From a virus (lineage: Duplodnaviria > Caudoviricetes): DNA of 64,000 nucleotides. A model generated the notes under the pieces. That model had not been told where the DNA came from, did not search any database, and saw only the letters and a list, made by a program, of their open reading frames with translations. Position 1 is the first letter of the stretch, and the number at the start of each line of letters is the position of its first letter. Of this stretch, positions 14,299 to 32,353 are shown piece by piece. The position numbers and the translations under genes are program-made. The stretch lies in the IMG/VR virus record IMGVR_UViG_3300045596_000094, positions 32,001 through 96,000 of that record; one strand, written 5' to 3'.

Positions 14299-14646
14299 TC
14301 AAATAAAATCCTGGGTGATCCAATTCAATGAACCCATTTCCGCTGCTGTAAGTTTATAGTCGTCTATTAGGTGAGGTCCAACGATTTCATCTGAGCAGAT
14401 TGTTTTCTCATCGGAAGGACTATAGACTAACTGATACCGTTCAGCCACCTCAAAACCAACGTCATGACCATCCATCCGTTCAATATAGCTTTTTAACAAT
14501 GGATGTTCCACCGTACCGCGGTAAAGTTTCTTTGCAGGTACTAATATTAAAGCTTTATCAGACCACCCTTTTAAACGAACCGCTTTCCCACTTTTCATCT
14601 GAAGATATGCTTCCGGGAAAGAAATTGTTCTAGTTCTCATATCCAT
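14299..14646 (-). CDS. DUF2829 / Tad2-like protein (candidate immune-signal sponge)
   Basis: N-terminal SFPEAYLQMKSGKAVRLKGW resembles the DUF2829 consensus F.EAL..LK.G..V.R.GW; C-terminal YKLTAAEMGSLNW resembles W.PSQ.D.LA.DW. Confidence 0.6.
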   Translation of the reverse strand: MDMRTRTISFPEAYLQMKSGKAVRLKGWSDKALILVPAKKLYRGTVEHPLLKSYIERMDGHDVGFEVAERYQLVYSPSDEKTICSDEIVGPHLIDDYKLTAAEMGSLNWITQDFI

Positions 14647-17370: not shown

Positions 17371-19113
17371 ATGGCCGTTAGTTATCCATACGACCCATCG
17401 GGGGTTGCTAGTACCAACCTTATCGTCGATGAACTTCATTCGGTTCAACCTCCCTCAGACATTACTCATGCCTCTTTTATCGTCCTCCACGCTGCTCCGT
17501 TTTTCATGGAAGGTGTTGAAGTTTATACAGGTAAGAATAAATCTGGGACACGTTTGATCCCGAACGTCGATTACATTTATACACATAAATTCGTAGCAGG
17601 CACGCAGTACCTTGGTCGCATCATTTACGGTGGGATCATGTTTACAAACCAGAACTATACTGGTAACGTGTATGTCACCTATCAAACCCTAGGTGGTGAT
17701 TTCACCGTAAACGACGTTGCTATTATTGAACGTATTACTAATGAAGTCTATTCGGATGTCCGTTTTGTAACTTGGGATCAAATCCAAGGTGTACCTTCGG
17801 CATTTCCACCAGATGCACATCAGCATACTGTAAATGATATTAAAACATTAGATGACGTACATCTAGCATTAGAAAATATTGCTGCGGCTATTTTAGCCGG
17901 TGGTCAGTCAGGCGGTGGTGATAGTGGTGCATTGGCTTTAATCACTCAGCATTTATCGAATCAATCAACTGCACACACCCCATCTGCCGTGGGTTTAGGT
18001 TTAGTTGCTAACTATAAAGTTGCAACGGAAGCAGAAGCTCTAGCTCTGCGTACCGATCGATATATGACCCCTCAAGTGACCGGCTATCTCATTGCTCGAT
18101 ATATCGCAAACCAGAACATCGGTGATATCCGCGTTAAAGTTCAGGTATTAGAAGAAAGCGTTGACCGTATTAAATTGCAGATCAATGACATCCTACAGTC
18201 GATCAATGATCAGAGTGATAGTTTGGCTGATATGGCTACTTCTATATCTGCGTTCCGACGCGAACTCGATATCATGAATGAAAATATCGGTGATATGCAG
18301 CAACAGGTCATGAATGCAACAGCAACCGCAAATACAGCTATGGCTGTAGCGAATGCTGCTGACGGAAATATGCAAGACATGATTAGTCGTGTCCATGACA
18401 TTCTTTACGTGAACAACTCAATACTTCCAGTTGGTAGTCATTTCCTTACTATTCCAGCGGGTTCTAAACTACAAGTAACTCTAGTAGGTGCTGGTGGTGG
18501 TTCAGGTAAACATCATGTATTGAGTTCTGATGGAATACGTTTTGGCGGTAATTTAATGCCTGGTGAAGAATCTACCTTATTCTTCTTAGGTACTCGTAAA
18601 CTACCGTTAGAACCAACTCCTCTCGCTATTGCCGGTGGTGGTCAGTCTGGTATGAACAACTGGGGTGATGCTGGCGCTGTGGCTGGTGGTGCTGGTGGTA
18701 AAAGTTGGACCTTCCGTGGGAACCGTGTGAAAGTAAGCGAGATTAAAAATATTAATCTCGTGAATGACCTCATTGAATCTGCTGCTGAAAACCATGGCAC
18801 CGCAGGTACCAGTGGTGACAGTGCAAACACTGAAAGAAATGTAGCTGGTGTTGGTGGGTTCTACATTAACGCAACTGGTGATGCGTATCGGCAACTATAT
18901 GGTAAAGGTTGTCCTGGTTCTACCCGAGCTTCATTGGGTGGTTCTGGTGGTAAGTGTGTTTACATTATTGATAATGATGGCACTGAAGATATACGCATCG
19001 GTATTGTTGTTGGTCGCCACGGTACATCTTCGCGCAATGCGTTATCAACGCCGGTTACTTACTTATCAGCAATTGAATCGAATGGTGTAGCCATCGTTCA
19101 ATTAGTCAACTAA
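17371..19113 (+). CDS. Tail fibre / tail-tip protein, phiKZ gp145/146 family
   Basis: N-terminal YPYDPSG..STNLI.DE.H...YQTLGG...W..I.G.P.AFPP..H.H module, central coiled coil, C-terminal glycine-rich domain. Confidence 0.75.
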   Translation: MAVSYPYDPSGVASTNLIVDELHSVQPPSDITHASFIVLHAAPFFMEGVEVYTGKNKSGTRLIPNVDYIYTHKFVAGTQYLGRIIYGGIMFTNQNYTGNVYVTYQTLGGDFTVNDVAIIERITNEVYSDVRFVTWDQIQGVPSAFPPDAHQHTVNDIKTLDDVHLALENIAAAILAGGQSGGGDSGALALITQHLSNQSTAHTPSAVGLGLVANYKVATEAEALALRTDRYMTPQVTGYLIARYIANQNIGDIRVKVQVLEESVDRIKLQINDILQSINDQSDSLADMATSISAFRRELDIMNENIGDMQQQVMNATATANTAMAVANAADGNMQDMISRVHDILYVNNSILPVGSHFLTIPAGSKLQVTLVGAGGGSGKHHVLSSDGIRFGGNLMPGEESTLFFLGTRKLPLEPTPLAIAGGGQSGMNNWGDAGAVAGGAGGKSWTFRGNRVKVSEIKNINLVNDLIESAAENHGTAGTSGDSANTERNVAGVGGFYINATGDAYRQLYGKGCPGSTRASLGGSGGKCVYIIDNDGTEDIRIGIVVGRHGTSSRNALSTPVTYLSAIESNGVAIVQLVN

Positions 19114-19132
19114 CAATGAAAAGAGGTAGGTT

Positions 19133-21097
19133 ATGAACTTTCGTGAACCTTCAAGACCGTATGACCCTACCGCATCGTCATTGCAGAATTTGGTAATCGC
19201 TGAAAAACGACCATTGGGAACGAATGAATACTATATTTTCGTTCCTTCCCATGGTCCGTATTATTCTGATTCTCTTAAAGTGTATAGTGGTGGTAAACTA
19301 CTAGAAAGAGAAAAGGATTATCGTACGTTAGTGCACCATCCTCGAGCATCTGGAGTGACAGCGAAAGAGGTTAGCGTTTGTGTTCAGATCATTAACACAT
19401 CTTTAACTGAAGTTGACATTACATATCAGGTTGTTGGTGGCGGTTTCCAATGTCTTTTTGAGATTATAAAACTCATCAAGGACAGTTATGGCGATAAGGT
19501 ACTGCGCCCGATTCTCTGGCATGAAATTATTGGTAAGCCTGATAGTTTCAATCCAGCAGCGCATTGGCATGTGGTTTGGGATATTTCAGGTTGGGAGAAG
19601 ATTATTACCCCAATTGACCAGATTCGCCAAGCTATCACATTTAAGAAGCAGCAAGCTTACCGTGATATTTACGACTATTATTACGCCAAACAAATTGCCC
19701 ATCAAAATGATGTGGATTCGCGAATCGCGACACTGTGGCAGAAAGCCGAAGCTGTCTGGTCTAAAATCCGACCGCCTGTTGGTATTGTGACAATTACCAC
19801 TAAACCAAATCTCACATTTCCTGATGGGGACTACGTTGAGATGAAGAACACTCTTCTCTGGGGTGTGAGTGCCGATGGTGATTTAGGTAAAACTTGGAAT
19901 GTGAGTAAAGACTTAGTTTTCCCATATCCCGATAACCTGTTATTGAACGAGAAAGAATATCCTATCCTTCAAGAGAAAGATGAATTCATTTTCTTAGATA
20001 ACGAACACCCTGTAAGTCCAAAGGTTACCCATACCGAGGAATATTGGGAAGAAATTGATGAGTTGTTTGATGCACTCACTGTGAAGATCTGGAAGAAGAC
20101 CACCCAGGGTGGGGAATTCAGAGCTACACTTACAGCGGCGCCTACGACCATCAATGAAAATGAGGTTACCTTATTCACCCTAAATACTGTCGGGTTTGCA
20201 CAGGGTACCCAAGTACCATATCGTTTAACAGGAATTGGTCCTAACAACGTGAATGTACCTCTGGATGGTGTGGTAACAATTAACTCAGTAGGGGTAGGTA
20301 CTCTCGCGGTTAAATTGGTTGCGGGTAGTCCTCGAACTGATACCGATACCATGCGTTGCGATATGTTGGTTGCTGGTGGATTAAACGCTTCGGTCAAGTA
20401 TAATCTATTATCCAACGTAATTCAATCCACAGACACCACATTACATCAGTATGCGAATGGCCCTTTACTCACTTCACCAATTGTGCGTGGTGATTGGTAT
20501 GTCATGAAAATTGTACATCGCGGAATGAATGGTAAAAACTTGAAAATTAATTTCGGTTTGACTGTGAATGATCGTGTTACGATTAATGACGTACTTATAG
20601 CCGGGAATGCCGATTATACATACGCTGTTCCAGCTACTGGTAAATACGTAACGTTGAAATTCTGCGTTACATCTAGAGCGAATATTGTAAGCAATTCAGC
20701 TACGCTGAAACTTACAACGGCTTCAGGGGTGGTGGAATCTTTACCCTATTCCTTAGATATTTTCGAGTTCATCGCTCTGGAAGCCTATAGTCCTGCAACG
20801 GGTGAAGTTCTTCCTTCTATCCATTACCATCAGTCTTTTAGACTTCGTGTAAAGCAGAACTCTAGAGACAATCCGGTAGTTGATTTAAGATTAACTGGCA
20901 ATACCACTACAGGCGTTATTTCCCCTAGTTTTATCCCACCACTTTATTGTGATCGTAACGGTGTTGGTGAGTCTGGGACATACAGTCTGGATGAAATCAG
21001 CGGTACAGCGATGACCGCAGGAAAGCTGACGTTCGTAGCGGTAGAACAACAGCTCAAAAAGATCCAGATTACTTTGGATCTCCCCGTAATAGTCTAG
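19133..21097 (+). CDS. Tail fibre / tail-tip protein, phiKZ gp145/146 family, with an Ig/Calx-beta-like segment
   Basis: PYDPTA...YQVVGG...W.EIIGKP.SFNP..H.H module; TTINENEVTLFTL...VPYRLTGI Ig-like segment. Confidence 0.72.
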   Translation: MNFREPSRPYDPTASSLQNLVIAEKRPLGTNEYYIFVPSHGPYYSDSLKVYSGGKLLEREKDYRTLVHHPRASGVTAKEVSVCVQIINTSLTEVDITYQVVGGGFQCLFEIIKLIKDSYGDKVLRPILWHEIIGKPDSFNPAAHWHVVWDISGWEKIITPIDQIRQAITFKKQQAYRDIYDYYYAKQIAHQNDVDSRIATLWQKAEAVWSKIRPPVGIVTITTKPNLTFPDGDYVEMKNTLLWGVSADGDLGKTWNVSKDLVFPYPDNLLLNEKEYPILQEKDEFIFLDNEHPVSPKVTHTEEYWEEIDELFDALTVKIWKKTTQGGEFRATLTAAPTTINENEVTLFTLNTVGFAQGTQVPYRLTGIGPNNVNVPLDGVVTINSVGVGTLAVKLVAGSPRTDTDTMRCDMLVAGGLNASVKYNLLSNVIQSTDTTLHQYANGPLLTSPIVRGDWYVMKIVHRGMNGKNLKINFGLTVNDRVTINDVLIAGNADYTYAVPATGKYVTLKFCVTSRANIVSNSATLKLTTASGVVESLPYSLDIFEFIALEAYSPATGEVLPSIHYHQSFRLRVKQNSRDNPVVDLRLTGNTTTGVISPSFIPPLYCDRNGVGESGTYSLDEISGTAMTAGKLTFVAVEQQLKKIQITLDLPVIV

Positions 21098-21109
21098 GAG
21101 TAAAATCAC

Positions 21110-21937
21110 ATGGCTGACTATAGCCTCGATTTGGCTGCAACAAATCCAGCCAACTATATTACCGATACGTATAGACGAGGTACTGGCGCGTGGATATTTG
21201 TTCCTGTGGCTGGTGCTTTCTTTACTCGTGATCTGGTCTTAACAAATACCGTCAATGGTAGACAACTCGAACCTCAAACACAATATCGGGCTTTACATAC
21301 TCAAAAAGAAGCCACTTGGGATTCTGCTAAAGAAGTATGTACTGTGTTAGTGATACTTGATGCTGCCGTCAATGAGGTCGCAGTAACGCGACGGGTAGTG
21401 GGTGGTAAGTTTCAGATTGTCGGCAGTGATGTAGAGAAGATCATCACTGAAGAAGATATTAACAATATCAACTCCTCTACGTGGGGCCAGGTAATCGGGC
21501 AACCTTATCAATTTCCTTTTGATCCGCACAAACACTATACCGAAGATGTCTACGGTTTAGAGCATGTGGTCTATCTATTAGATGAAATTCGTGGATCTAT
21601 CGGCACTGGTGATAAAAATGCTTTTGGTATGGTTTATCAGTTTATCGATAAACAGTTTACTGTGTTAAGTGAAGAAACCGATACTAAACTCAAGCAAATT
21701 GAATCAATCATTGACAATATTGAAGGTAACCGTAAATGGAAACCCGGGGTAATTGTTGCAATGACTAACAACACAAATCCAGCAACCGCGATTGGGTACG
21801 GAACATGGCGTAAACTGACTAACACGCTTCTTTATGGTGTAAACCTCGACAGCGAGTTGGGGCAACGTAAGAAGGTAGGTGAGGGTCCGGATTATCTCAT
21901 GACTGGTGTCTATTACTGGGAACTGGTTAGCGTATAG
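21110..21937 (+). CDS. Short tail protein, gp145/146 family, with baseplate gp10-like C-terminus
   Basis: YSLDLAATNPANYI...VVGG...WGQVIGQPYQFP...H.H module; C-terminal NPATAIGYGTWRKL motif. Confidence 0.7.
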   Translation: MADYSLDLAATNPANYITDTYRRGTGAWIFVPVAGAFFTRDLVLTNTVNGRQLEPQTQYRALHTQKEATWDSAKEVCTVLVILDAAVNEVAVTRRVVGGKFQIVGSDVEKIITEEDINNINSSTWGQVIGQPYQFPFDPHKHYTEDVYGLEHVVYLLDEIRGSIGTGDKNAFGMVYQFIDKQFTVLSEETDTKLKQIESIIDNIEGNRKWKPGVIVAMTNNTNPATAIGYGTWRKLTNTLLYGVNLDSELGQRKKVGEGPDYLMTGVYYWELVSV

Positions 21938-21946
21938 GAATGAGTT

Positions 21947-22810
21947 ATGTTTGACAGTCTTTTAAATCTTTGGAATAAATGGTTTGGTGGATCCACTACA
22001 CCAACACCTTCGGAACCAGAAGTCGTTTCACACGGCAGTCACGTACATCTCAAATATAACCTACAATTAGGTGTAATTGATACCCCAATTCCTGGAGAGA
22101 TTAACGGTGACCAATGGGATAGTTTTAATCCCAACCCATTAGCTTCTTCAGTACAGGCTTTGGTTGCTTCTGATGAATTCAAAGCGAGTGCTGCGCTGGC
22201 TAAGCGCCTAACAAAACAAACGATCATTGCTGCAGTGATCGATGTCGAAGCTGGTTACGTGAATCATCCTAACGATAAAGGTGGTGAAACTAACTTTGGT
22301 ATTACCAAAGCGGTGGCTGCTGAAAATAAAACCATGTTGGTGAAGAAATTCAACTGGGATGGTACGATGAAAGGGTTGTCGTACGATATGGCTTTCGCTT
22401 TATACGAACTACAATACTGGACACCGTTACGTTTAGATGACATCGTGAACATCGAACCTTTATTGGCCGATAAGTTATTTGATATTGGTGTGAACTGCGG
22501 CGTATCTCGTTCAGGACTTTGGTTAAAACAAATTCTGAACGTTTTAAACCGTGAAGGTAAGGACTATGCCGATATCAGCACAACCACAGGGTTTGTTGGT
22601 GATCAGACAGTGCAAACGATCAAATCTTTAGTTCGTGTGCGCGGACATAAGCCCGCAATGAAAGCTTTGTTGACTGCGCTTCTTTGTCGGCAAGGTTATC
22701 ACTACATCGATATCAGTATCAGTCGTCCGGCAAACGAAGCGTTTACTTTTGGTTGGTTGACTAATCGAATGCAACATCATCTAGATCTCTATTCTGAGCT
22801 ATTTGGTTGA
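21947..22810 (+). CDS. Endolysin, glycoside hydrolase family 108 with PG_binding_3-type C-terminus
   Basis: EAGYVNHPNDKGGETNFGIT, LFDIGVNCG and NEAFTFGWLTNR motifs. Confidence 0.92.
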   Translation: MFDSLLNLWNKWFGGSTTPTPSEPEVVSHGSHVHLKYNLQLGVIDTPIPGEINGDQWDSFNPNPLASSVQALVASDEFKASAALAKRLTKQTIIAAVIDVEAGYVNHPNDKGGETNFGITKAVAAENKTMLVKKFNWDGTMKGLSYDMAFALYELQYWTPLRLDDIVNIEPLLADKLFDIGVNCGVSRSGLWLKQILNVLNREGKDYADISTTTGFVGDQTVQTIKSLVRVRGHKPAMKALLTALLCRQGYHYIDISISRPANEAFTFGWLTNRMQHHLDLYSELFG

Positions 22811-22825
22811 TGTTAAATAAAAAAA

Positions 22826-22875
22826 GCATAAGCTTGATAGAGTAGAGTCCGAAAGGACTCTACTCTATTTATGCC
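22826..22875. terminator. Bidirectional intrinsic terminator
   Basis: 14-bp stem ATAGAGTAGAGTCC-GAAA-GGACTCTACTCTAT flanked by GCATAA...TTATGC. Confidence 0.88.
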
Positions 22876-23080
22876 ATTTCGAATGGGCAATCTTGTTGTG
22901 GTGAATTCGTTTAATTAAATAACCAGACCCCATGAGGAATAAACCAAAGAAGACAGTGGCTAAACCAAGTAAGATCAGACCCGCAACAGAACGACTGATG
23001 GTGTAAACAAATATAGTTAAGCATGTCATTCCGATAAAACAGAACTTGTAAAAATTGTGAAGGATTGTTAATAAAAGCAT
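22865..23080 (-). CDS. Small membrane protein (2 predicted TM helices, basic C-tail)
   Basis: 71 aa with two hydrophobic stretches and KRIHHNKIAHSKWHK tail; AAGGA RBS. Confidence 0.65.
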   Translation of the reverse strand: MLLLTILHNFYKFCFIGMTCLTIFVYTISRSVAGLILLGLATVFFGLFLMGSGYLIKRIHHNKIAHSKWHK

Positions 23081-23144: not shown

Positions 23145-23663
23145 TTACGATTCTTTTGAAAAGACTTCAATGATCTTAGGGTGTTTTAAACGTTTAATAT
23201 CCACGGAGCGTAGTTGACGGTTCTTCTTATACGTTCCGTCAAGGATATCCTTCATTCCACGGGTTGTGTGCTCAATACCTCTGACAATAGAACGCCATCG
23301 CATCACCACCAAGGCATTTTGATCTGAATCATTGAGTTTGTCTTCGCCGAGACTTGCGCGAAATTCTTGATGTTTTGATTTATCTGAAAGAAGTTCTTGG
23401 GCTGATTTAAGAAGTAAGATAGTGAGTTTATTGAAGACTGAACTATCTTTTTCATCTAAACGTTGTAAGCGATGAATGATGGCTTCTAATAAAAGTTCAT
23501 TACTGACCCCATTAACATCAGAAGCTAACGTTCCTTGCTGGAAAGGGAGTTCTTCAACATGAATAATCCCTTCTGCATTAGCTCGATATTCAACCACATA
23601 CACACCGTCTTCAAAACACAATTTGTTCCCTAAAGGGTCGGTATAGATATGTTGATTATTCAC
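23145..23663 (-). CDS. Tad1-like protein (candidate immune-signal sponge) with C-terminal extension
   Basis: LPFQQG......NGVSNELLLEAIIHRLQ.....SS..N matches the Tad1-family pattern FQ.G...GV...DLL.I..DRL..FQ...SREN. Confidence 0.65.
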   Translation of the reverse strand: MNNQHIYTDPLGNKLCFEDGVYVVEYRANAEGIIHVEELPFQQGTLASDVNGVSNELLLEAIIHRLQRLDEKDSSVFNKLTILLLKSAQELLSDKSKHQEFRASLGEDKLNDSDQNALVVMRWRSIVRGIEHTTRGMKDILDGTYKKNRQLRSVDIKRLKHPKIIEVFSKES

Positions 23664-24000
23664 GAGTTGGTTTCATCCCACGAGTTTCTGCAACCATCTG
23701 TTCGAAAGTTTTGAAATAGGGGATTTCGCTACTATCGTCTAAATCATCATCCAGTTCAGCTGCCAAGGTAGCTTCTGTTTTCTTCTTACGCATTTCTTCG
23801 ATCGCCTGAACCGTGCGGTCTCGATCAAACTGTTTCAAAATAGGGATTAGTCGGTCTATGAGATTAGCCCAAGGATACCCCGAGCACGTTGGGCTGCGGG
23901 TAAGATTAGAGATTCGTCTTAAAACATCCCGCATCTTCTCTTCATTGTTTTCAGCAATGAAGAGATTAGTTTCTTGTTCAAGAACTTGATAAGAATTCAC
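23656..24000 (-). CDS. Hypothetical protein
   Basis: 114 aa; GTG start with GGAG RBS, coupled to neighbours. Confidence 0.7.
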   Translation of the reverse strand: MNSYQVLEQETNLFIAENNEEKMRDVLRRISNLTRSPTCSGYPWANLIDRLIPILKQFDRDRTVQAIEEMRKKKTEATLAAELDDDLDDSSEIPYFKTFEQMVAETRGMKPTRE

Positions 24001-26762: not shown

Positions 26763-27095
26763 TTACTCCGGAACAATGATATCATCGTGGTGGGCATCCA
26801 CTACGATAAAGTTTACAACAGGCTCGTCTTTATTGATTTCAGCTAACTTAGTTGAGCGATTAGAAAGTTGTAATTTAAGATACCCACAATACCCTTCTTC
26901 TGCAAATGAGGCACCAAGACTTAAACCCATATCCCCGAACTTCTTACGAACACTGATGATAACGGTTTTTCCTTTTGGAACCGAAATCTTTTCTTTGATA
27001 TCAATTGTGCCAAATGAGCCCGGCTCAATCTCAACCCGTTTACTTGCTGAGAGTTCGCGTTTTACAGGTAATGGGGTAGGTGGAATAAATGTCAT
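26763..27095 (-). CDS. Degenerate trimeric dUTPase / dCTP deaminase-fold protein
   Basis: VEIEPG...EKISVPKG....I..R..FG..GL......EEGYCG.LKLQL.N......I.KDE.VVNF aligns by eye to the dUTPase beta-clip; catalytic motifs altered, motif V absent. Confidence 0.7.
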   Translation of the reverse strand: MTFIPPTPLPVKRELSASKRVEIEPGSFGTIDIKEKISVPKGKTVIISVRKKFGDMGLSLGASFAEEGYCGYLKLQLSNRSTKLAEINKDEPVVNFIVVDAHHDDIIVPE

Positions 27096-27987: not shown

Positions 27988-28566
27988 TCATTTTACGTTA
28001 AAGTATTTTCGGATAAAATCGTAATGCTCTACCAGTAACCCTGCATTAGATTCTCCGTTTTCGATACGGAGAACATTAGATGTCGGGATTGGGTAGAGGT
28101 CGAAAGAATCATCTAATACGAGATAATCAAAATTGTGTTCGCCGTGGTCTAATAGCCATTGACGAATTTCATGACCCCGCCAGTAGCGAGTGTCTTCTTT
28201 TACCTGAACAGAATTATACCAAACCGAATCGATGTATTCTTTCAAAATCGATTCATGGTTGTCTGGTAATTGAGAGAAAGGTTCTTTTACATGAGAGACT
28301 GTTCGCCAGTCATCATGAATATTCAAACGGATGTTTGTAGCGTAGTAAATACTGTCAGAGAATGCTTCTTTAGACTTATGTAGTTTTCTTCTTGCTGAAG
28401 AAACAACAATTTTAAAGTTACACTCTGTCTGGAGTGACCTGAGCATAAGTACCGCTACGGGATCGTAATTCATATTTAGAATACTGTTCCGTAGCGATGA
28501 AATTACCCCGTCGATATCTAAGAATATAATTCTTTGTTTATCCATAAACTTTACTGTCAACACCAC
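27988..28566 (-). CDS. HAD-superfamily phosphatase (Swiss-army-knife RNA-repair-like HAD domain)
   Basis: IIFLDIDGVI, IVVSSARR, RGHEIRQWL and YLVLDD motifs. Confidence 0.85.
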   Translation of the reverse strand: MVLTVKFMDKQRIIFLDIDGVISSLRNSILNMNYDPVAVLMLRSLQTECNFKIVVSSARRKLHKSKEAFSDSIYYATNIRLNIHDDWRTVSHVKEPFSQLPDNHESILKEYIDSVWYNSVQVKEDTRYWRGHEIRQWLLDHGEHNFDYLVLDDSFDLYPIPTSNVLRIENGESNAGLLVEHYDFIRKYFNVK

Positions 28567-29776: not shown

Positions 29777-31846
<2,070 letters not shown>

Positions 31847-31891: not shown

Positions 31892-32353
31892 TTAGTGACA
31901 GTATTGACGCATCAAGGATTTTGCCTCTTGTTCCAACATGAGGTCTTGATCAGTGATATTCACAATTAACGCCAACTTCTGATCTGCAATTTTCAATAAG
32001 TGCGTGAGATTCATAAGCTCTAATTCAATTTTGTCGAGACAATCGGAACGTGGGATGAATGGTCGGTAAACTAAACGATCCGTTTCTTCTTCGAACCCGA
32101 TAATGGTGAGTGGTGTGAGTTTACCCGCCACAAGTACTAATCCGTATTTGGTGTCTTTGTTTGGAGCTTCTTGTGGGTTAGCGAACTTATCAAAGAAATG
32201 GAAAACATTGGATTGAGCGTCAACAAGCTGTTGGGCAGATGTGCGATAAATATCTACCTCTTCTTTAAAGCTTACCGCACTTGCCCCTAACCCCACTAAA
32301 TTTGAAAGCACGCGATGGCGATTGTTTGTTATTTGATGAACGATACGGATCAT
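31892..32353 (-). CDS. Hypothetical protein
   Basis: 153 aa, AAGGA RBS; preceded by cUUCGg hairpin 32375-32390. Confidence 0.7.
   Translation of the reverse strand: MIRIVHQITNNRHRVLSNLVGLGASAVSFKEEVDIYRTSAQQLVDAQSNVFHFFDKFANPQEAPNKDTKYGLVLVAGKLTPLTIIGFEEETDRLVYRPFIPRSDCLDKIELELMNLTHLLKIADQKLALIVNITDQDLMLEQEAKSLMRQYCH

Follow-up and report, generated by a model that had tools for sequence, protein, structure and literature searches.

A Tad1-family protein with a conserved C-terminal arm and two replaced pocket arginines in a probably nucleus-forming, phiKZ-like phage

The window analyzed here is a stretch of 64,000 nucleotides from a virus of the Caudoviricetes (Duplodnaviria; IMG/VR record IMGVR_UViG_3300045596_000094, positions 32,001 to 96,000 of the record). 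On its minus strand it encodes a protein of the Tad1 family of immune-signal sponges (the query, P0001), in which a predicted Tad1 fold is followed by a conserved C-terminal arm and two family-wide phosphate-binding arginine residues are replaced (Table 1). The start codon of the gene lies in an 8-nt overlap with the end of the upstream gene, which encodes a protein of 114 amino acids (aa). Two orthologs from independent short metagenome contigs, P0003 (175 aa) and P0004 (173 aa), begin at the equivalent residue, with ATG, and have the same 8-nt overlap, which supports the start assigned to the query gene. These orthologs are 49% identical to the query and 68% identical to each other. In a codon comparison, the N-terminal domain and the tail behaved alike, with proportions of synonymous differences (pS) of 0.67-0.8 and of nonsynonymous differences (pN) of 0.2-0.38, the synonymous sites being saturated, which precludes a proper estimate of the nonsynonymous to synonymous rate ratio (dN/dS). 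Because pN is well below the saturated pS, the locus is a conserved, selected gene rather than a chance open reading frame (ORF).

Table 1. Features at the Tad1-family locus and elsewhere in the phage genome; positions are those of the window unless stated otherwise
Feature	Position	Strand	Remarks
Tad1-family gene	23145..23663	-	172 aa plus TAA stop; GTG start
Predicted Tad1-fold domain, residues 1-106	23346..23663	-	Four-stranded β-sheet (4-39), helix α1 (55-72), helix α2 (76-104)
Basic C-terminal arm, residues 107-172	23148..23345	-	Helix α3 (112-147), loop with invariant R152/D155/R158/K160, helix α4 (162-171)
Upstream 114-aa helical protein with acidic disordered C-terminus	23656..24000	-	Invariant 'MNSY' N-terminus; translationally coupled
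Downstream 71-aa hydrophobic ORF	22865..23080	-	Apparent membrane segments, basic C-terminus; final gene of the minus-strand block
Hairpin, 11-bp stem with cUUCGg tetraloop	23111..23136	-	Begins 9 nt past the stop codon; no U-run after it
NAD-dependent DNA ligase	29777..31834	-	phrog_3869, E = 6e-184; heads the block
HAD_SAK_2 phosphatase	27988..28566	-	E = 1.1e-13
Short DCD/dUTPase-like protein	26763..27095	-	PF22769, E = 1.5e-6
Three consecutive genes (580, 654, and 275 aa)	17371-21937	+	Shared N-terminal phrog_2163 virion/tail-fibre-type domain, E = 1e-33 to 2e-51
Homolog of chimallin (phiKZ nuclear shell gp54)	G000:C1:173091-174590 (L009), outside the window	-	E = 9e-22, 25% identity over residues 95-588; 721-aa open frame

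Membership in the Tad1 family emerged from profile searches. The single query sequence reached CmTad1 in the Protein Data Bank (PDB) at E = 0.19 by phmmer and matched the PHROG family phrog_2428 at E = 1e-9. A profile of the three-member clade (query, P0003, and P0004) had CmTad1 (8KBB) as its sole significant match in the PDB (E = 3.7e-4), and when it was run with HMMER against 1.84 billion representatives it found 88 proteins, mostly of 100-135 aa. All family column counts given below refer to 85 aligned relatives drawn from these 88 matches. The profile of the 85 relatives matched all Tad1 structures in the PDB (E = 5e-29 to 1e-21) as well as phiKZ gp184 (E = 2e-17). The Pfam family PF24729 (Acb2/Tad1 hairpin) was matched by 11 of the 85 (best E = 6.5e-9) and not by the query even at E = 10; a Pfam scan of the query returned only Herpes_UL7, below threshold. 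Close relatives are rare. A tblastn search of 50,697 phage records gave one partial match, in Acinetobacter phage ABMM1 (40% identity over residues 41-106), and blastn with 8 kb around the gene gave none. A pattern scan of IMG/VR with the clade alignment added no relatives, and a word-index protein search returned only the query's own cluster, P0003, and P0004. The Tad1-like motif string described in the initial annotation is present, at residues 41-106.

The predicted structure agrees with this assignment. An AlphaFold2 (AF2) model of the query had a mean predicted local distance difference test score (pLDDT) of 93.6 and a predicted template modeling score of 0.82, with strands at residues 4-8, 14-18, 21-27, and 34-39, followed by four helices (Table 1). 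In a Foldseek search of the PDB, a check proposed in the initial annotation, ranks 1-20 were all Tad1 chains (probability 1.00, target-normalized template modeling score 0.55-0.68, E = 6e-3 to 1e-1). Alignment of model residues 1-104 with Tad1 structures by VIA-align gave Z scores of 7.0-7.5 and root mean square deviations of 2.5-3.0 Å over 101-104 residues at 19-24% identity; the rows with higher Z cover residues 43-154 only and are generic helical bundles or hairpins that match the α2/α3 pair. Judged from the model, residues 1-104 have the Tad1 fold. A two-copy run of ESMFold2 gave a homodimer score of 0.79; the best of three controls scored 0.00. In calibration, proteins solved as one-chain pairs attained that mark in 20 of 30 cases, and proteins solved as single chains in 1 of 23. 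Three dimer runs agreed in at least 96% of contacts, with a partner pLDDT of at least 83. The interface comprises β4 (residues 37 and 39-42), α1 and α2 with the self-contacts 58-58, 84-84, 85, and 88-88, and the tail (109-168), and agrees with the published β4-β4 seam and four-helix bundle of Tad1. Because the predictor may recall solved Tad1 dimers, this result indicates likeness to the Tad1 dimer and is not proof of it. The sequence profiles, the fold, and the predicted dimer together bear out the proposed Tad1 scaffold.

The ligand pocket differs from that of characterized Tad1 proteins in a restricted way. CbTad1 contacts 1''-2' glycocyclic ADP-ribose (gcADPR) through 11 residues: H29, G55, R57, R78, F82, F87, N92, R109, R113, G120, and N122 (Leavitt et al., bioRxiv 10.1101/2022.05.03.490397). 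The mutations F82A/N92A and R109A/R113A each abolish its binding of gcADPR and 2'3'-cyclic GMP-AMP (2'3'-cGAMP) (Li et al., bioRxiv 10.1101/2023.11.15.567273). We mapped the query onto CbTad1 and CmTad1 by two independent hidden Markov model (HMM) alignments, which gave the same result. Of the gcADPR contacts, G55 is kept as G44, R78, a ribose contact in CbTad1, as R65, and N92 of the pocket for gcADPR and cyclic dinucleotides as N78. F82 of the same pocket corresponds to L69, Leu being the commonest residue of that column (55 of the 85 relatives), and R57 is replaced with L46. H29 and F87 align with G20 and D73, in strand or loop regions where the mapping is less certain. The phosphate clamp is altered at both positions, since R109 is replaced with K95, and R113 with Q99, a Glu in P0003 and P0004.

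Across the family these two columns are seldom changed. G55 is conserved in 84 of the 85 relatives, R78 in 82, and N92 in 79, and Arg occupies the R109 column in 80 and the R113 column in 72; the columns of R57, R90, T97, W105, R108, and D112 are variable. Lys is found at the R109 position only in the query, P0003, and P0004, and no other relative among the 85 lacks both arginines with N92 and R78 kept. The residue set of the gcADPR/cyclic dinucleotide pocket is therefore only partly retained, and in these alignments the query departs from the family at the two phosphate-binding arginines. The initial annotation had described the pocket changes as REN to VFN and W..RR..DR to L..DK..HQ. The letters are correct, and they include the substitutions of E91 with F77, W105 with L91, R108 with D94, and D112 with H98; but only the changes at R109 and R113 are unusual, the other columns being variable in the family. 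Similarly, the LG at the end of its Tad1 pattern is seen in the query, but G106 is Lys in P0003 and P0004. The pocket is walled by loops that keep the family motifs FQxG, NGxxNE, and SxFN, which are invariant across the 49%-identical orthologs.

Most relatives stop about 4 residues after the conserved Gly, whereas the query continues for 66 aa past G106. In agreement with the basic extension of about 60 aa noted from the sequence at the outset, this tail has a net charge of +5 and an isoelectric point (pI) of 9.9 (9.2-10.0 in the orthologs), and it follows an acidic N-terminal Tad1 domain (pI 5.1 in the query, 4.6-5.1 in the clade). It is conserved in P0003 and P0004 and more weakly in P0005, that is, in four syntenic phage lineages including the query. 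Residues invariant in the three closest tails include D114, N116, R122, W123, E131, T144, Y145, R152, D155, R158, and K160. Beyond P0003, P0004, and P0005, the 1.84 billion representatives contained no homolog of the tail, and a Pfam search with the tails of the four orthologs found no family, and neither Sigma70_r4 nor another helix-turn-helix (HTH), even at E = 10. Tails longer than 25 aa occur in 14 of the 85 relatives, and those outside P0001, P0003, P0004, and P0005 are not detectably homologous to the query tail. Among such proteins, P0008, P0010, P0013, P0014, and P0018 (from contig L004 and related short contigs) form a subgroup with support of 97 in the Shimodaira-Hasegawa-like approximate likelihood ratio test (SH-aLRT). 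They are 190-256 aa long, with about 30 extra N-terminal residues, a tail of 54-120 aa unrelated to that of the query, and both arginines; one of the genes adjoins a thymidylate synthase gene.

In the dimer model, nearly the whole tail (residues 109-168) lies in the interface, as in the contact of residue 84 with residue 133 of the partner. The extra C-terminal region proposed initially is thus real and conserved, but it is a two-helix arm, almost all of it in the modeled interface, and not an independent domain. The position of the arm bears on higher assembly. CbTad1 holds cyclic triadenylate (cA3) through R90 and T97 at the interface of a trimer of dimers, and the hexamer of CmTad1 depends on R88, T95, K96, Q98, E99, M102, W103, and K106 (bioRxiv 10.1101/2023.11.15.567273). 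The query has V76 and L83 in place of the two cA3-site residues, and V76, L83, L84, K86, S87, E90, L91, and D94 in place of the eight hexamer contacts. None of the eight is identical; since these columns also vary among the relatives, the differences are not decisive for family membership. Five of the eight equivalent positions (76, 84, 87, 91, and 94) are buried in the dimer model's interface. As modeled, the arm appears to begin where the lid of Tad1 closes the pocket, to embrace the partner, and to cover the surface that forms the canonical hexamer; an arm so placed would make a dimeric Tad1 without cyclic-trinucleotide sites.

The order of events can be read in part from the ortholog P0005 (189 aa, 31% identical to the query), which lies on contigs of 41-85 kb with the same gene order. 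On one side of the P0005 gene is a homolog of the 'MNSY' protein encoded upstream of the query, with two ORFs, of about 105 and 315 aa, before it. The other side has one or two small ORFs and, beyond them on the opposite strand, an endolysin gene (GH108/PG_binding_3) and genes for three phrog_2163-type virion proteins. P0005 has a homologous arm together with both arginines. Therefore, the arm predates the pocket change, the two were separate events, and the arm is compatible with a canonical-looking pocket. In a maximum likelihood tree, the three proteins with the Lys and Gln or Glu pair clustered (SH-aLRT 80) within a larger set of eight (SH-aLRT 93), whose other members are tailed and, with one exception, keep both arginines. 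Because the three are nested among proteins that keep the arginines, the loss appears to be derived. The tree was a quick one from a 108-column domain and offers little resolution (of its 82 branches, 3 are starred), so it supports only the place of the trio among tailed, arginine-keeping proteins. The clade has been seen in a single complete genome, in a pair of short contigs, and in two others that carry the more distant ortholog.

The query gene is the penultimate gene of a tightly packed minus-strand block that runs from the ligase gene to the 71-aa ORF. In each of the four syntenic loci, a homolog of the 114-aa protein is encoded directly upstream of the Tad1-family gene, with an overlap of 1 or 8 nt. 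An AF2 model of this protein (pLDDT 77) has three helices; neither Pfam nor PHROG gave an informative match, and all Foldseek rows had E > 1. The protein is a putative partner for the basic arms. The 71-aa ORF, which looks holin-like by inspection only and had no match in a PHROG search, is convergent with a GH108/PG_binding_3 endolysin gene (21947-22810, plus strand), and small ORFs of 63-79 aa occupy the equivalent place in contigs L010 and L002. The hairpin that follows the query gene has a folding energy of -15.8 kcal/mol (z = -3.1), and 1 of 200 shuffled sequences folds equally well; it may mark the transcript end or act as a stability element. A scan of the gene's strand for sigma-70 promoters and terminators gave nothing above shuffled sequences, with a model unsuited to a phage that has its own RNA polymerases. 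On the related contig L002, the genes for the DCD-like protein and the HAD_SAK_2 phosphatase occur in the same order further up the same strand, and a matching phrog_2163 trio (578, 657, and 274 aa) adjoins the endolysin gene.

The virus record that contains the window is complete, 269 kb long, and carries direct terminal repeats; its large terminase shares 40-44% identity with the large terminases of phiKZ-like jumbo phages. Together with the homolog of chimallin, this makes the earlier assumption of a nucleus-shielded phage a reasonable one, the nucleus itself being predicted from sequence; the phage is probably phiKZ-like and nucleus-forming. A search of the genome found no Tad1-family gene other than the query. 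Elsewhere in the window, a 115-aa ORF (14299-14646, minus strand) has a sub-threshold match to the Tad2-like family PF11195 (E = 0.003; 18.5 bits, where the cutoff is 25) that spans only positions 2-41 of the 73 in the profile; this would be a possible, unconfirmed second sponge-family gene.

Taking these results together, we give slightly better than an even chance to a predicted function as a diverged Tad1-family sponge, that is, a dimer clasped by its tails whose phosphate-binding site is altered. The protein would be expressed from the ligase-led minus-strand block, would not be packaged as phiKZ gp184 is, and would act in the cytoplasm by capturing a nucleotide-derived immune signal of the host. 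In the models it forms an interlocked homodimer of the Tad1 type, held by the β4 seam and by α1 and α2, with each arm packed against the partner. It would not assemble beyond the dimer into a trimer of dimers, the trinucleotide sites being absent, and two pockets at the dimer interface may bind an adenine-containing ligand with altered recognition of the phosphates. An adenine-containing signal is probably still recognized, because N78, R65, G44, and the pocket loops stay unchanged against a divergence of 50% in the rest of the protein. Specificity may be weaker than, or different from, that for 1''-3' gcADPR or cGAMP, and residues of the tail possibly line the pocket. A different immune signal and a repurposed protein, the two options raised in the initial annotation, both stand as hypotheses.

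Several points weigh against such a sponge. The loss of both gcADPR and cGAMP binding in CbTad1 R109A/R113A concerns the very positions that are Lys and Gln or Glu in the query clade, and the acidic Tad1 domain (pI 4.6-5.1) is opposite to the positively charged pockets of known sponges. The view of a dimer that does not form hexamers depends on the model and on substitutions at columns that are not constant among true Tad1 proteins either, and the replacements of H29 and F87 were mapped in less reliably aligned regions. A more specific form of the proposal, to which we attach a rather low probability, is that the protein is an obligate dimer whose Lys/Gln-rebuilt pocket, walled by the basic arm of the partner, captures a signal not known for Tad1, possibly an undescribed one, in the hosts of this nucleus-forming clade.

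The same loss of the arginines, where P0003 and P0004 have Glu in place of R113, would also fit a repurposed scaffold, in which the Tad1 fold serves as a dimerization platform, ligand binding has been lost, and the basic arms bind other proteins, for instance the acidic 114-aa protein or a defence protein of the host. The opposite charges of the N-terminal domain and the tail, and a coupled upstream gene that is kept in four of four loci and whose product ends in an acidic, disordered C-terminus, are in line with this, as is the report that about one quarter of tested sponge homologs inhibited none of seven systems (PMC12393519). We consider it unlikely, if a serious competitor, since a mere platform would have no need of pocket loops and of N78, R65, and G44 that stay invariant at 49% identity, and K95 is a conservative replacement.

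A less likely account still is an ordinary Tad1 that binds 1''-3' gcADPR, perhaps also cGAMP, and inhibits type I Thoeris, with a tail that only stabilizes the dimer. The equivalents of N92, R78, and G55 are kept, Lys at the R109 position could still contact phosphate, and the pairing of tail and both arginines in P0005 makes the tail compatible with a canonical pocket. Furthermore, all 10 of the 10 diverse Tad1 homologs examined by Leavitt et al. inhibited Thoeris (bioRxiv 10.1101/2022.05.03.490397). Against this stand the failure of the CbTad1 R109A/R113A mutant to bind, the lid glycine that is not conserved in the clade, and a Lys and Gln or Glu pair that is unique among the 85 relatives and has been maintained across saturating divergence.

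phiKZ gp184 suggests a further role, in which a Tad1 is carried in the capsid, delivered with the DNA, and has an extension for packaging. The Tad1-domain protein gp184 was located in the capsid's inner vertex complex, in a paper that does not call it Tad1 (PMC11297242), and has been described elsewhere as a non-essential, injected Tad1 (bioRxiv 10.1101/2025.11.23.690004). The query is likewise the single Tad1-family gene of its genome, and one of the BFVD matches is a Klebsiella jumbo phage 'structural protein' that is Tad1-like. However, gp184 has an N-terminal region of about 100 aa and a short C-terminus, the query has no N-terminal extension, and its gene lies among non-structural genes (ligase, HAD phosphatase, and DCD-like protein). 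With architecture and gene context so different, we judged a capsid role very improbable, and packaging would in any case be compatible with sponge activity and does not exclude it. Finally, a ligand-sensing regulator in which a Tad1-like sensor is fused to a DNA-binding HTH resembling sigma-70 region 4 was rejected: the tail is basic, and phmmer aligned residues 113-165 with the sigma region 4 chain 3n97_A through a common 'RKLRHP / KRLKHP' ending, but at a non-significant E of 0.11, and the Pfam search described above found no HTH in the tails of the four orthologs, AF2 predicts residues 112-147 as one continuous 36-residue helix (pLDDT about 96), residues 72-154 have generic antiparallel helical hairpins as their structural neighbours, and the tail is buried in the modeled interface.

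Sponge proteins have become tools for finding immune signals: gcADPR came to light through Tad1, and MoTad2 contributed to the discovery of His-ADP-ribose (PMC12393519). The query is worth a binding screen on these grounds and is not surprising in kind. It is a concrete candidate for altered specificity, with a replaced clamp, conservation of both the Tad1 domain and the arm, and the arginine-keeping P0005 as a built-in comparator, and it shows how the acquisition of an arm may alter the oligomeric state of the Tad1 scaffold. In nucleus-forming phages the DNA is shielded from nucleases, but the phages are still exposed to signalling defences in the cytoplasm. For phiKZ itself, the sole anti-defence gene known previously was its Tad1 (bioRxiv 10.1101/2025.11.23.690004). 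If the query is a sponge with a rebuilt pocket, the protein could serve as bait to identify the signal that it captures; if it is an ordinary Tad1 or an inactive relic, the outcome would be a routine annotation only.

Among the closest known systems are the phage-encoded CbTad1 (7UAV, 7UAW, and 8SMD) and CmTad1 (8KBB-8KBD), which share with the query an N-terminal antiparallel β-sheet, the α1/α2 hairpin, FQxG and NGxxNE, the equivalents of R78, N92, and G55, and, by prediction, an interlocked homodimer. The query differs from them in the replacement of R109 with Lys, R113 with Gln, R57 and T97 with Leu, and R90 with Val, less reliably of F87 with Asp, and in a 66-aa basic helical arm in place of the 4-residue C-terminal lid. 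gp184 (PHIKZ184; L007:4470-5162; NC_004629 198469..199161) is, like the query, the sole Tad1-family gene product of a phiKZ-like jumbo phage, and phiKZ is nucleus-forming. Its C-terminal domain matches the Tad1 profile in the PDB (8Y6V chain I, at the E value given above) and in the genome (E = 9e-20), and keeps N92, R109, and R113. In contrast to the arm, the Lys/Gln pair, and the non-structural gene context of the query, gp184 has both arginines, a canonical short C-terminus, and the N-terminal region that the query lacks. The tail-bearing relatives from uncultured phage contigs (P0005-P0008, P0010, P0013, P0014, and P0018) group with the query clade, and most of them, unlike the query, keep Arg at both positions; P0005 is the positional ortholog, with the same neighbours and a homologous arm. 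Acb2 has in common with the relatives of the query a hairpin with conserved motifs (the PF24729 domain); the query differs from it in the Tad1-type N-terminal β-sheet, and its best structure and sequence matches are to Tad1 and not to Acb2. The Tad1 family is functionally plastic (1,587 non-redundant homologs, of which 20 have been tested; PMC12393519). The Tad1 family, its plasticity, and the presence of a Tad1 in phiKZ were thus known already. What is new here is a rare clade that combines a conserved C-terminal arm with the replacement of both family-wide arginines.

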